A stretch of DNA of 40,942 bases, from IMG/VR virus record IMGVR_UViG_2531839450_000010, positions 1 to 40,942 of that record; one strand, given 5' to 3'. This stretch comes from a virus. Its lineage: Duplodnaviria > Heunggongvirae > Uroviricota > Caudoviricetes. Of this stretch, positions 1 to 40,942 are shown piece by piece (position 1 is the first letter of the stretch; each line of letters opens with the position of its first letter). The notes under the pieces were generated by a model, which was not told the origin of the DNA, did no database searches, and saw only the letters and a program-made list of their open reading frames with translations. The translations under genes and the position numbers were made by a program.

Positions 1-1343
1 AAACTTTCTCTATCGTGCCGGTACATCACGGAAACGATAGTGACTATGACGCCGCGCAGGCGTTGTGTGACGAGCTGATGAACGACATCGGGCGAACCAT
101 CAACAAAGAGGTCGCCGGGTGGGCATTTATCATGTCTGTATTTGGGGTGGCTTATGTCAGGCCATACGCCAAAGAAGGCATAGGGATCACGTCTTTTGAG
201 TGCTCCTATTACACCCTTCCGGGCTTCATCAAAGAGTTCGAGGTCAGCGGCAACCTGGCGGGATTTAGCGGCGATTATCTGAAGGACGCGTCAGGGAAAA
301 TGGTTTTCGCCGATCCGTGGGCCATTATCCCTATGAAAATCCCCTACTGGCGGCCTAAGTCAAACCTTATGCCTGTGCACACTGGCCATAAGGCTTACAG
401 CCTGCTGGATAATCCGGAAGAGCGCACACCGATTGAAACCCAGAATTACGGGACCAGCTTGCTCGAATACGCCTACGAGCCGTACATGAATCTGCGTTCG
501 GCGATCCGCTCACTGAAGGCAACGCGTTTTAACGCGTCGAAAATTGACCGAATCATCGGCCTGGCGATGAATAGTCTGGATCCGGTAAAAGCAGCCGATT
601 ATTCACGCACCATTACTCAGACGCTTAAACGAGCAGCTGACCTGATGGAAAAGCGCGCACGCGGCGCGAATAACATGCCTACGGTGACCAATACTCTGCT
701 GCCTATTATGGGCGACGGCAAGGGACAGATGACTATTGATACTCAGACCATCCAGGCTGACATCAACGGCATTGAAGACATTCTCACCTATATGCGCCAG
801 CTGGCGGCAGCACTTGGCCTCGATTACACCCTCCTGGGGTGGGCAGATCAAATGTCCGGCGGGCTTGGTGAAGGTGGATTCCTGCGCACGGCAATTCAGG
901 CCGCCATGCGCGCCTCATGGATCCAGCAGGGCGTAGAAGAGTTCATTCAGCGGGCTATCGATATTCATCTTGCTTTCAAGTACGGCAAGGTATACCCGGA
1001 AGGTGATCGCCCGTACAAAATCGAATTCCACTCCGTTAATACCGCTCTGCAACAAGAGCACAACGACAACCGCGACTCGCAGGCGAACTACGCCACCATC
1101 GTTACGCAAATCCTCGATGCCGTCAGCAATAACAGCGTCCTCGCCAATTCCGATGCATTCAAACGTTACCTGTTCAGCGATGTGCTGGAGATTGACGAAA
1201 AAATCTCTGAAGCACTGGTGAACGAACTGAAAGCGAAAAGCGAGGACGACGATCACCTGATGGATTCCATCATCAAAACACCGCCACAGGAACTGGCGCA
1301 AATCCTTGAATCGGTCTTTAAAGAGGGAAACGATAATGACTGA
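1..1343 (+). CDS. Portal-like head protein, partial (N-terminus lies beyond the window start)
   Basis: Reading frame is open from the window edge (ORF track 15..1343). Assignment rests on size and position immediately upstream of a head-maturation gene, by recall only. Confidence 0.4.
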
Positions 1344-1444
1344 TGTTTTGAAAACGGTCACTGACCGCTTTTGTCTCTATAGCAATGCTCGAAAAGGTCG
1401 CCAGAACGGGCGACAGTATGTATTAAGCGCGGTAAAGACCATGC

Positions 1445-2356
1445 TTGGAAAGCAAGGAAACTCAGGAAGGTTTACGCCTTGGTGAGCTTTTCGGCTATTA
1501 CGGTCACGGTCGCCGACAGCTGACTGGCAAACTGGAAGTACCAGAAACCAGCGTGATCATGGTGGAAGGTCGCCCGGTCGTAATCGACAATGTTCCGGCG
1601 TGTCGCACAGTGGCTATATCTGTTGACGACAACGGCATCGTTACCCATACACAGGAAATTCTTAACACAGAGCCGGGTAAAATTGTCGCCGCGATGATCG
1701 AAAGCCGAGCTGGTGGCTGGAGCTGGGCCACTGGCGGGCGCGAGTCCGGGAAAATCGCTGTAACCACCAGCTTCCATGGTGTGGATTATGTGACAACGCC
1801 GAACTATATCAGTCTGGATCATCCTGCCAGCGCCGGAATGTTTGAAAGCGCGGATTCTAAATCTCTACTGGCAGAGTCCCTGGCGGCGCATGGGTACTCC
1901 GACGAGTCAGTGCAGGCAGTTATATCCCATTACGGCAAAATGGCTGAACTGGAAATGATGGTGGAGGCGACAGAGCGTACGGCAGAACTGGAAACCGCAC
2001 TACTCGAAAGCCAGGGCCGCCACCTCGAAGCAATGGCCAAGATCGCAGATGCTGAAGCGCGAATCGCTTTGCTGGAGGAAACAGCGGGTATCCGCGACGA
2101 TGTGCTGGCAGCAATGCAAGACGAACTGGATAACCTCCCGATCTTCGTCTCCGCCGCCCAAAAAGACGCATTCCGCCTCAAAGAACCTGGTGATGCAAAA
2201 ATCGTTGCCACACTTTTCGAATCTCTGATCAAAGTTGGCGCACGCAACTTGCCTGTCACCAGGAAAATTAAGGAGGTTCCGCAAGCGGCTAACGTCCAGG
2301 CACCGCGTGAGACAAGCATCATCACGTTTAATAATTCAATCAATCCGTTCAAATAA
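1445..2356 (+). CDS. Head maturation protein, protease/scaffold-like
   Basis: 303-aa ORF with a central coiled-coil-like Ala/Glu/Leu-rich stretch, directly after the portal-like gene. Track start is TTG, so the true start is uncertain. Confidence 0.4.
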   Translation: MESKETQEGLRLGELFGYYGHGRRQLTGKLEVPETSVIMVEGRPVVIDNVPACRTVAISVDDNGIVTHTQEILNTEPGKIVAAMIESRAGGWSWATGGRESGKIAVTTSFHGVDYVTTPNYISLDHPASAGMFESADSKSLLAESLAAHGYSDESVQAVISHYGKMAELEMMVEATERTAELETALLESQGRHLEAMAKIADAEARIALLEETAGIRDDVLAAMQDELDNLPIFVSAAQKDAFRLKEPGDAKIVATLFESLIKVGARNLPVTRKIKEVPQAANVQAPRETSIITFNNSINPFK

Positions 2357-2369
2357 CCACCAAAAATAA

Positions 2370-2395
2370 CCCCGGCAGCTGCCGGGGTTCTCGTT
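2370..2395 (+). terminator. Rho-independent terminator-like hairpin after the head-maturation gene
   Basis: CCCCGGC-AGCT-GCCGGGG stem-loop followed by TTCTCGTT; the opposite strand has TTATTTTT after the stem, so it may act in both directions. Confidence 0.5.
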
Positions 2396-2403
2396 AACTA
2401 TTA

Positions 2404-38916: not shown

Positions 38917-38976
38917 AACTTTCCCTGTTATGCGCCCCGCACGGGGGCGCTATGTTAAACGGAGAACTTCCCCTGA

Positions 38977-40683
38977 TTACTCAGAGTCACCGGCATCAAT
39001 CGTGTCGCCGCTTATGAAGTTAAGCCCGCCTTTTTTGGCCATTGTCAGCGTTACACGAGTGAAGTAATCAGCGCCGTTGCGTGGGTGCATATCGTTGATA
39101 GCCGAACCCCACAGCGTGGTACGGTTGACCAGCGCCGGAGTGGTCGGATGCTGGAACGGGATGGCCGGGACAGCATCACCAGTCACGAAGCCTGCTTTAC
39201 CTGGATTTTCATCACGGACGTAGCACAGCACATCCATCGAGCTGAACTGAATGTTCTCTGTCGTTAAGTTCTTACAAATACCAGCAGGTACTTCGTACAC
39301 TTTCACGTTACCGAACAGGGTACCGATGTAGTGAACATACGGAGTCTGGATATAGTCTTCGGCTGGCTGGAAGAAATCCTTCGGCAACTGTTTGAAGAAA
39401 GATGCTGCATCAGCACCAGCAAACATCCCCATCGCACCAGAAGATTTAACGCGCTCAATAATGTCGCGATATACAGTCTGGAATTTGCCACGAATGATGG
39501 TTGCCCATACATCAAAGGACTGGTTAACCGGCAGAGCGATGTCAAAGGTGTCGGTCGCAAGAGTACGCCAGATCATGATGCGAAGACGCAGCATATCCTG
39601 TTCATGAGACAGGTATTCCTTCAGGGTGCGGAACTGTAGGGAACCCAGGTCCAGACCAAATTCACGCTGTGCTTCATACGCCGCCTGTACCGTGTGCTCA
39701 GCCGCGATAACGAACTGGCTTGGGAACAGGGTGTATTTCTTCATTTCGTGGTTGATCAGCGGGATCAGCTCAGGAGCGGCTTCAATATTGATTTCCGTCT
39801 CAATTGCGATCTCAGTGCCTTTATCCGGCGCTTTGGAGAACGACAGGGCAATCTGACCAATGTTGTAGTTCAGAGAGCAGGTAACAGTGATTTGCTCACC
39901 AGCAGCATTAGTAAACGAGTGAAGTAGGCTGCCGGAACCGTTATCAACAACAGACTTAATACGGTTAACGTAGATATTAGTGCGACCTTTTCGGATTGGT
40001 ACATTCTGGCCTTCGAAGTCTTCCATCTTGAAGGTTGCGGTTTTGCTGGTGCCATCGGAGCTTGCCACCAGCACATAGCGGCGGCGTAACTGGCTGTACA
40101 CACCGACGGATTGCATGTCCAGAACATCACCAGCAGCATAAGAACCAAAAGAGGAACCTGCCACGTTAAAGACTTCATAGATGTCGGACTGGTCACGCGT
40201 AACCGGAATGAAGGTACACGCATCAGCGGTAGCTGCCCCCAACTGAACAGGCAGGATCATCGCGAGGAATAAAGGCAGACGCATAACACCGTCAGAAACG
40301 CTCATCATCTCTGCTGCGACAGATTCCAGCATCGCTTTATTAGTGGCATCCATGCTGTTGCGGGTGGACTCAATCAGGCAGTTTTCCAGCGTCTGGTGGC
40401 AGGAGGCCAGAATTTCCGGACGCGGCATAGATTTATGTGCTGCGGCGTAGTCAGCCAGTGCACTTGCCCACGCTGTAGCGATTTGAGCGGTGGCATTATC
40501 AGAGATACCCGCAAAAACCGGGTCTTTACGTGCAGCTTCAAGGATAGATGCGGCACGCGCGGCATCATCTTTAATGAATTGGTTATCAGTACCGAACTGC
40601 GCAGTGCTTGCCCAGCCAAGCACAGCTTTAGAGCGTTTTGCGATATCTGCAATACGATTCTGGTATTCGCGTAAGTTACTCAA
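38977..40683 (-). CDS. Major head (capsid) protein precursor candidate
   Basis: Probable TTG start at 40683 with an AAGGAAG RBS 6 nt upstream (the track start at 40704 is upstream of the RBS). About 568 aa, consistent with a capsid precursor with an N-terminal propeptide of roughly 62 kDa. Confidence 0.45.
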   Translation of the reverse strand: MSNLREYQNRIADIAKRSKAVLGWASTAQFGTDNQFIKDDAARAASILEAARKDPVFAGISDNATAQIATAWASALADYAAAHKSMPRPEILASCHQTLENCLIESTRNSMDATNKAMLESVAAEMMSVSDGVMRLPLFLAMILPVQLGAATADACTFIPVTRDQSDIYEVFNVAGSSFGSYAAGDVLDMQSVGVYSQLRRRYVLVASSDGTSKTATFKMEDFEGQNVPIRKGRTNIYVNRIKSVVDNGSGSLLHSFTNAAGEQITVTCSLNYNIGQIALSFSKAPDKGTEIAIETEINIEAAPELIPLINHEMKKYTLFPSQFVIAAEHTVQAAYEAQREFGLDLGSLQFRTLKEYLSHEQDMLRLRIMIWRTLATDTFDIALPVNQSFDVWATIIRGKFQTVYRDIIERVKSSGAMGMFAGADAASFFKQLPKDFFQPAEDYIQTPYVHYIGTLFGNVKVYEVPAGICKNLTTENIQFSSMDVLCYVRDENPGKAGFVTGDAVPAIPFQHPTTPALVNRTTLWGSAINDMHPRNGADYFTRVTLTMAKKGGLNFISGDTIDAGDSE

Positions 40684-40698
40684 TTTACTCTTCCTTAA

Positions 40699-40842
40699 AC
40701 ACAAGGCACTTGTGTGAATCCCTTTTCGGAAGAGATTTTATTGAAAGTCACTTGTTGACTTTCTCGTGACAAGCAATTTTTTATTTTTTTCGGGAGTAGG
40801 GGAAGAAGGTAAAATCCAAGGTGAAATCGTGGCGATTTCACC
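40699..40842. promoter_or_regulatory. Upstream region of the capsid operon carrying three palindromes
   Basis: ACACAAG-GCA-CTTGTGT (40699..40715), GAAAGTCA-CTTGT-TGACTTTC (40743..40763) and GGTGAAATCG-TGG-CGATTTCACC (40820..40842). Confidence 0.4.
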
Positions 40843-40942
40843 TTGAAATTTTAGATGGATTTACTTTAAAAACAGCAGGTTAATAGTGAAATTTGAATGG
40901 CGAAAGTTTAAGGCTTCGGCTTTTTATCGAGGCTCTTTCTAA

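Follow-up and report, generated by a model that had tools for sequence, protein, structure and literature searches.

The DNA analysed here, a stretch of 40,942 bp that we call the window, is one whole draft contig (ADUR01000016.1) of assembly GCA_000188855.2 from Escherichia coli OK1357, and we identify it, with a probability of about 0.95, as some 41 kb of a Punavirus, a temperate myovirus of the P1/P7 family carried in this strain as a low-copy plasmid prophage. The window holds about 40% of such a prophage. The element is a mosaic, neither strictly P7 nor strictly P1: its backbone, porin gene and lydC are P7-like, its parS site and the a' loop of its c4 antisense RNA are P1-like, and its sim, rlf and c4 b' alleles are of a third type. 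Naming the element P7 was considered and rejected, since P7 has other alleles of c4, parS, sim and rlf. Nothing in the window departs from what is described for the P1-like family, and in this respect the segment is already known and ordinary.

Phage P7 was the top match for the first 25 kb when phage records were searched by megablast (97% covered, 97.6% identity), followed by RCS47, JL22, phi456 and P1, and the same set of Punavirus phages matched the second half of the window. In a sensitive blastn alignment, P7 positions 21,436 to about 61,700 were collinear with the window, about 89% of which was alignable at 97.6-97.8% identity, leaving gaps at 14539-14908, 27916-29200, 32645-35321 and 40861-40942. 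P1 was also collinear (about 84% alignable, 96.5% identity), with extra gaps at 3864-5728 and 12949-13304. At the protein level, tblastn placed 38 of the 41 P7 proteins annotated from proA to gp23 on the window in the same order, most of them at 95-100% identity, and Sit at 90% because its middle part is divergent. The P7 upf52.1/pmgF product had a weak match in the window (47% over 64 amino acids), and tblastn found no match there for upf50.0/upf50.5 or rapA/rapB, whose two loci hold other cassettes here.

The first-pass annotation of this DNA had read it as a segment of a P1-like phage-plasmid on the strength of several landmarks, and all of them (Lyz, SSB, Cin with an invertible fibre segment, the SLT protein Sit, immI with C1-operator 17-mers, and repL) were located in the sequence. 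Their best matches are the Punavirus phages P7, P1, RCS47, JL22 and SJ46 together with hundreds of E. coli and Salmonella plasmids of about 90-100 kb, mostly non-mobilizable. Pfam confirmed Phage_lysozyme in Lyz (99.5% amino acid identity to P7 Lyz), SSB, Resolvase plus HTH_7 in Cin and SLT in Sit, and further matches were obtained for ANT, KilA-N, DarA_N/DarA_C, ddrB-ParB and Caudo_TAP, the last in U. The comparison with P1 and its relatives that the annotation had proposed as a check showed the window to be collinear with both P7 and P1 and located the islands as alignment gaps, and neither of the contrary outcomes it had named was seen, namely best landmark matches outside P1-like elements or chromosomal flanks with an integrase.

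Regulatory sites, namely the late promoters, operators, cix sites and parS, can be traced base for base to P7 and P1. Five Lpa-type late promoters, each with a -22 box and a -10 element, are identical to P7 or one base off, and C1 operators start at 3339, 13337, 29199 and 30871. Three 17-mers lie within one mismatch of the C1-operator consensus, against 0.18 expected by chance, and two weaker operators map from P7. The segment carries modules for head processing and portal, two lysis clusters, ssb, the Dar antirestriction operon and a Cin/C-segment switch of host range, with tail-fibre, baseplate, tube, sheath and capsid genes presumably driven by the Lpa-type promoters. Within immI the c4 antisense RNA would repress icd-ant, C1 would repress the lytic replicon kilA-repL, and parS would serve as plasmid centromere. 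Non-essential, exchangeable cassettes sit between these conserved modules, at known recombination hot spots of the P1-like family.

Cassettes at the hypervariable loci

Eight hypervariable regions have been described from 54 P1-like phage-plasmids (PMC9603915), and the parts of the window without P1 or P7 homology coincide with four of the eight, regions 2-5. Region 2 corresponds to isaA-IS1-isaB, region 3 to lydC-cin-Sv'-U'-U-S, region 4 to simABC and region 5 to rlfA-rlfB-pmgF (PMC9603915). The P1 genes at regions 2, 4 and 5 (isaA-IS1-isaB, simABC and rlfA/rlfB/pmgF) are non-essential by CRISPR interference (CRISPRi; PMC10695390). Because no insertion sequence (IS) borders the islands, and because the gene content of these sites differs among P1, P7, pUTME-7-2 and p18B233LT1, the islands are best read as alternative cassettes brought in by allelic replacement at known hypervariable loci, and not as insertions. 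The description of the window as cargo inserted between conserved modules holds with one correction: the regions are real alignment gaps, but replaced alleles at known loci describe them better than insertions do. Similarly, the porin and the ParA-like island had been singled out as least phage-like, and both are gaps relative to P1, but the porin is P7's own NmpC. A third island relative to P1, the sim locus at 27916-29200, was not on that list.

Each cassette recurs among sequenced plasmids: the porin cassette in 103 (at least 80% coverage; 99.8-99.9% identical in about 55), the sim-locus cassette in 81 (99.9% identical in CP099080) and the rlf-locus cassette in about 150. In pUTME-7-2 the rlf-locus cassette is matched at 99.9-100% identity (100% over its whole length), and 38 complete E. 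coli genomes also carry the whole cassette. The cassettes were probably swapped by homologous recombination in their conserved flanks. The 17-mers of two C1 operators (29199-29215 and 32634-32650) each contain a cassette junction, with the conserved ATTGCTCTAAT core on the backbone side. At the left edge of the rlf-locus cassette, ATTGCTCTAAT is followed by CTGGAG here and by TATAAC in P1, and the P7 junction of the sim-locus cassette lies at Op(c4). Since the operator at 32634 keeps only the half with the ATTGCTCTAAT core, C1 control of the ParA-like cassette is doubtful. Consistent with the report for the P1-like family (PMC9603915), the cassettes are lower in G+C than the backbone (33-45% versus about 50%).

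Comparison with individual relatives bears out the mosaic. P7 (AF503408 / NC_050152), collinear over window positions 1-40860, shares the nmpC porin cassette, the Sv/U set of the C-segment, the late promoters, the operators and the lydC allele, LydC being 100% identical in amino acid sequence. At the sim locus, however, P7 has upf50.0/upf50.5 where the window has a pair encoding a long SimA and a YfjT-like protein, and at the rlf locus it has rapA/rapB/upf52.1 where the window has ParA-like, DUF3892 and pmgF-variant genes; the two also differ in an unrelated 370-bp stretch of Sv', in the middle part of Sit, in both c4 loops and in parS, which is P1-type in the window. P1 (NC_005856) resembles the window in its backbone, its parS box sequences and its c4 a'/a1/a2 allele, and has the first 50 simA codons in common, although P1 simA is truncated to 52 amino acids. 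In contrast, P1 has isaA-IS1-isaB at the site of nmpC, simABC and rlfA/rlfB/pmgF at the loci of the other two cassettes, and different alleles of the lydC region and of Sv/U. P1-like plasmids of E. coli and E. fergusonii (pUTME-7-2, NZ_CP169031; p18B233LT1, NZ_AP028823; CP099080) carry individual cassettes near-identical to those of the window, but no single record examined has the same combination. In pUTME-7-2, for instance, the sim cassette is of an SH3-domain type, a DUF2829 cassette takes the place of the porin, the c4 a' loop is P7-type and an IS66 element is inserted.

Immunity and partition specificities

All components of immI are present under a C1 operator: the c4 antisense RNA, the a1b1 and a2b2 targets, icd and ant1/ant2. 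The c4 RNA matches Rfam C4 at 69.6 bits (gathering threshold 45), and the c4-a1b1 targets match their Rfam model at 61.2 bits (gathering threshold 46.7). The a' loop is P1-type (CUGUCAA, pairing with TTGACAG in a1 and a2) and the b' loop belongs to a third type (CGUAAGU, matched by ACTTACG in b1 and b2); the P7 specificity (a' CUGCUAA, b' CACAAUC) is not present in the window c4. Two related plasmids join the same third-type b' to a P7-type a', which argues that the two recognition loops of c4 reassort as separate units. The exact c4 allele of the window (29276-29520) occurs in 31 of 575 plasmids. Downstream of immI, the operator, kilA and repL of the C1-repressed lytic replicon are all present, repL with a -2 frameshift that is private to the draft.

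At the right-hand end of the contig, the box A and box B hexamers of parS are identical to those of P1 and not to those of P7, the P7 alignment ending at 40860. The parS boxes are therefore P1-type despite a backbone that is nearer to P7, and the integration host factor site departs from P1 at two positions.

As a discovery the segment has low value, P1-like phage-plasmids being common in E. coli and their hypervariable regions already catalogued; the draft contig has long been publicly available, and dozens of plasmids share each of its cassettes. In practice it serves as an annotated example: whole cassettes are swapped between conserved flanking sequences, two of the junctions lie in C1 operators, and the specificities of immunity (the c4 a/b loops) and partition (parS) reassort independently of the backbone. 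In addition, the ParA-like ATPase, the DUF3892 protein and full-length SimA are uncharacterised cassette genes and candidates for functional tests.

Alternative histories and the private frameshifts

Among the alternatives to a plasmid prophage with exchanged cassettes, a chromosomally integrated P1-like element is the least credible. The only recombinase seen in the 41 kb is Cin, with no integrase, attachment (att) site or chromosomal gene; no tRNA gene was found in the window; and at its right-hand end the contig reaches parS and parB. Of 521 places in complete E. coli genomes where the repL segment occurs, 510 (98%) are on plasmids, and the plasmid records matching the right-hand 16 kb number 925, mostly of about 90-100 kb and non-mobilizable. 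These results agree with the first-pass annotation, which had taken the missing integrase and att site to fit a plasmid prophage. An integrated origin can appeal to the other 11 of the 521 repL-segment matches, which are chromosomal, and to the contig ends, which give no direct proof of circular plasmid topology; as the window is a whole contig, it contains no chromosomal flank. Only slightly less remote is the proposal that the porin and ParA-like islands are recent foreign insertions, mediated by transposons or IS elements, into a P1-like backbone. The lower G+C of the islands, the carriage of ParA-like homologues inside IS1595-family elements in other phyla and a hok/sok leader remnant within the ParA-like island would all suit such an origin. 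However, the window has no transposase, the island borders have no terminal inverted repeats or target duplications, and each island substitutes for other P1 or P7 genes at the same site instead of being added to them. Moreover, identical cassettes occur in many P1-like plasmids in varied combinations, which points to homologous exchange between relatives. With no IS ends, and with genes replaced rather than added, we rejected the islands as transposon insertions.

Two points weigh against an intact plasmid prophage. The contig holds only part of the element: repA, parA, most of parB, c1, cre/lox and pac lie outside it, so that plasmid maintenance and phage competence are inferred from relatives. 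In addition, pro, S and repL are frameshifted, and these changes, if real, make the element defective. There are five private single-base indels in total: a G inserted at 1447 in pro, a C inserted in a C-run at 16582 in S (within Sv), two A deletions in the A7CA5 tract of repL at 32314/32315, and a deleted A in a non-coding A-run near 30799. All are absent from P7, from P1 and from the compared plasmid or plasmids covering each site. S is the tail-fibre gene in this orientation, and repL encodes the lytic replication initiator. As CRISPRi scores pro as essential and repL appears among the known essential genes (PMC10695390), the prophage would be defective if the mutations are real, and the sequence could then represent a P1-derived plasmid that has degenerated, can no longer be induced and is turning into a plain plasmid. 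Fragments of 89 amino acids from the C-terminus of RepL do exist in other assemblies, and A7CA5 may be a genuine slippage site. Nevertheless, homopolymer runs in this draft assembly contain four of the five indels, the non-coding one at 30799 among them, which is the mark of sequencing error in drafts. The repL deletion was shared by none of 515 complete E. coli genomes with this repL segment, and an exact-sequence look-up returned the truncated RepL product from contig ADUR01000016.1 only; all other genes are intact, at 95-100% amino acid identity. Because most of the indels lie in such runs, sequencing error is the probable cause and real inactivation the less likely one, and we regard degeneration into a plain plasmid as an unlikely outcome, if a considerably stronger contender than either integration or transposition.

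Cassette genes and remaining features

The porin of the region 2 cassette belongs to the OmpC family (Pfam Porin_1, E 4e-148; NCBIfam OmpC subfamily above cut-off) and is 95.7% identical in amino acids to P7 NmpC; it is therefore a native P7 feature and not new cargo. NmpC is presumably an outer-membrane protein of lysogenic conversion. The roughly 190 nt directly 3' of nmpC (3915-4101, minus strand) contain several hairpins and a terminator, and we suspect a porin-linked small RNA (sRNA) there. Searches of this stretch for a known sRNA such as IpeX gave only a sub-threshold, GcvB-like Rfam match (30.5 bits, gathering threshold 42), and no ipeX annotation underlies its E. coli matches.

Both proteins of the sim-locus cassette have signal-peptide-like N-termini and are predicted to be secreted. 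The 158-aa protein belongs to phrog_3429, with Pfam YfjT in precomputed annotation, and the 224-aa SimA-domain protein to phrog_3933, the exact protein being found on 974 contigs. P1 SimA (52 amino acids) is 94% identical to the first 50 residues of the 224-aa protein, and P1 simA is therefore a truncated remnant. Residues 131-177 of the long SimA (47 residues) resemble Sit 929-971 (49% identity, E 2.5e-8 by blastp against a small local set of 13 proteins), and the Sit PHROG gives an independent match (E 8.6e-8). The two secreted proteins would act in the envelope, possibly in superinfection exclusion, and full-length SimA, by imitating a portion of the Sit protein that is injected, could keep out superinfecting phages of the P1 type.

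The ParA-like protein of the rlf locus has an intact deviant Walker A motif (KGGVGKT) with the signature lysine, and its predicted model (predicted local distance difference test, 86.6) has the ParA/Soj/McdA fold (Foldseek E about 7e-12); NCBIfam gave only sub-threshold generic ParA matches. Walker A and predicted fold are common to the ParA, Soj and McdA ATPases and the 351-aa protein, which differs from its structural matches in sharing only 14-19% identity with them, in being about 90 residues longer and in belonging to a separate, tightly conserved family of solo genes. No ParB-type partner gene or iterated centromere-like repeats were found nearby, as a ParABS system would call for; next to it, beyond a bidirectional terminator, lies the convergent gene for the DUF3892 protein. 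Among 80 homologous loci there was no conserved partner, the sole recurrent neighbours being transposases, with a DDE transposase about 80 bp from the ParA-like homologue in about 21 of the 80.

The ParA-like family is 55-60% identical across many bacterial phyla. Among about 185,000 species genomes, 345 stretches, archaeal ones included, contain a member, and prophages, IS elements and phage-plasmids carry it as a solo gene. In Serratia it follows the repressor of a lambdoid prophage. In a Vicinamibacterales genome, three 2,272-bp copies (99.96-100% identical) comprise the ParA-like gene and an IS1595-family transposase. Each copy ends in terminal inverted repeats of 23 bp and has an 8-bp target duplication, different in all three, which marks the gene as a passenger of an active IS. 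DUF3892 has been tied to defence contexts by prediction only (bioRxiv 10.1101/2022.04.27.489752). We infer that the ParA-like ATPase and the DUF3892 protein are accessory or conflict genes borne by the element. That the solo ATPase represents an uncharacterised class of mobile-element accessory gene, paired here with DUF3892 at the rlf locus, is a long shot. We raise this idea because the family is partnerless and conserved across phyla and archaea, and because it is found as an IS1595 passenger, beside a lambdoid repressor and as a cassette of P1-like plasmids. Its members may act as an exclusion or defence factor expressed in lysogeny, or as a DNA-positioning helper that benefits the carrier element. 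None of seven cassette proteins matched a known anti-phage defence system in PADLOC-DB (E<=0.01), and PDB sequence searches with the DUF3892, long SimA, YfjT-like and PmgF-like proteins returned nothing significant.

Also within this cassette is an 89-bp element with matches of 85-89% identity in about 4,000 E. coli chromosomes, where it forms the leader directly preceding hokD. By alignment it is the leader remnant of a hokD-type hok/sok locus; no hok open reading frame (ORF) follows it in the window and the Rfam sok match is sub-threshold (23.7, threshold 59), yet it could perhaps still specify a Sok-like RNA.

Features of the window and loci of the ParA-like family (window positions unless a locus is named)
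Feature	Position	Strand	Basis or remark
prt (portal; P7 'proA'), 5'-truncated by contig end, amino acids 124-569	1-1343	+	tblastn with P7 protein, 99.6% identity
pro (head processing), split by +1 G at 1447	1336-2356	+	G insertion absent from P7, P1, pUTME-7-2
Lysis genes lydE, lydD, lyz (endolysin)	2336-3205 (2336-2551; 2404-2661; 2648-3205)	-	
Late promoter LPlyz	3293-3311	-	identical to P7
C1 operator Op(ssb)	3339-3355		operator scan
ssb	3375-3863	+	Pfam SSB
Region 2 cassette: OmpC-family porin NmpC (4097-5209), structured 3' region, AT-rich upstream region	3864-5728	-	
hxr/odaA	5949-6260	-	
dar antirestriction operon: ddrB, ddrA, darA, hdf	6250-9237; 9250-9615; 9612-11531; 11533-12144	-	
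lydB, lydA, LPdar (12920-12938), lydC (12952-13236), Op(lydC) (13337-13353)	12122-13353	-	lydC of P7 allele
cin DNA invertase, internal enhancer 13376-13443	13358-13918	+	Resolvase plus HTH_7
Invertible C-segment, cixL to cixR, crossover points 13922/13923 and 17786/17787	13913-17796		
C-segment genes Sv', U'	Sv' to 15123; U' 15127-15654	+	
C-segment genes U, Sv	15683-16216; 16222-17786	-	
Tail-fibre gene S (Sc plus Sv), split by extra C in C-run at 16582	16222-19147	-	
R, LPs (19623-19642), gene 16, bplA, pmgA, sit (22294-25692), pmgB, tub, pmgC, LPsit (27890-27909)	19159-27909	-	tail fibre, baseplate, tail tube module; LPs has one mismatch
Region 4 (sim locus) cassette: secreted YfjT-like 158-aa protein (27917-28393), secreted 224-aa 'SimA-domain' protein (28455-29129)	27916-29200	-	
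immI: Op(c4) 29199-29215, a1b1 targets 29276-29328, c4 RNA 29397-29482, icd 29529-29750, ant1/ant2 29747-30793	29199-30793	+	
Lytic replicon: Op(rep) 30871-30887, kilA 30957-31757, repL/oriL 31787-32630	30871-32630	+	two 1-bp deletions, 32314/32315
Region 5 (rlf locus) cassette	32645-35321	both	
ParA-like ATPase, 351 aa	32894-33949	+	
Bidirectional terminator hairpin	33975-34008		perfect
DUF3892 protein	34020-34307	-	convergent with ParA-like gene
hok/sok leader remnant, 89 bp	about 34478-34566	+	
PmgF-like 198/210-aa gene	34596-35228	-	N-terminus 47% identical to PmgF
bplB, pmgG, gene 21, gene 22 (sheath; 37327-38916), gene 23 (major capsid; 38977-40683), LP23 (40735-40753)	35364-40753	-	
parS (40821-40903) and last 35 bp of parB (3' end)	40821-40942	-	comparison with P1/P7
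ParA-like family loci	L074/L075/L076 4883-7154; L009 6001-7056		

Short A/C-rich tandem arrays with similar units (CAAAAAACAAACAA...) lie at 5399-5463 and 34350-34399, upstream of the minus-strand nmpC and DUF3892 genes, respectively; their similarity may be chance low complexity. The middle of sit (23351-24694) is far more divergent than its ends: megablast found no P7 counterpart for it, and its identity to P1 is 85% at the nucleotide level. This suggests a variable segment in this tape-measure/transglycosylase protein. The 3.86-kb C-segment is bounded by 198-nt inverted repeats, and its crossover sites cixL (13913-13932) and cixR (17777-17796) are identical to those of P1 and P7. Within it, the tail-fibre assembly gene U is a single intact ORF of 177 amino acids, but is divided into Ua and Ub in the reference record of P7.

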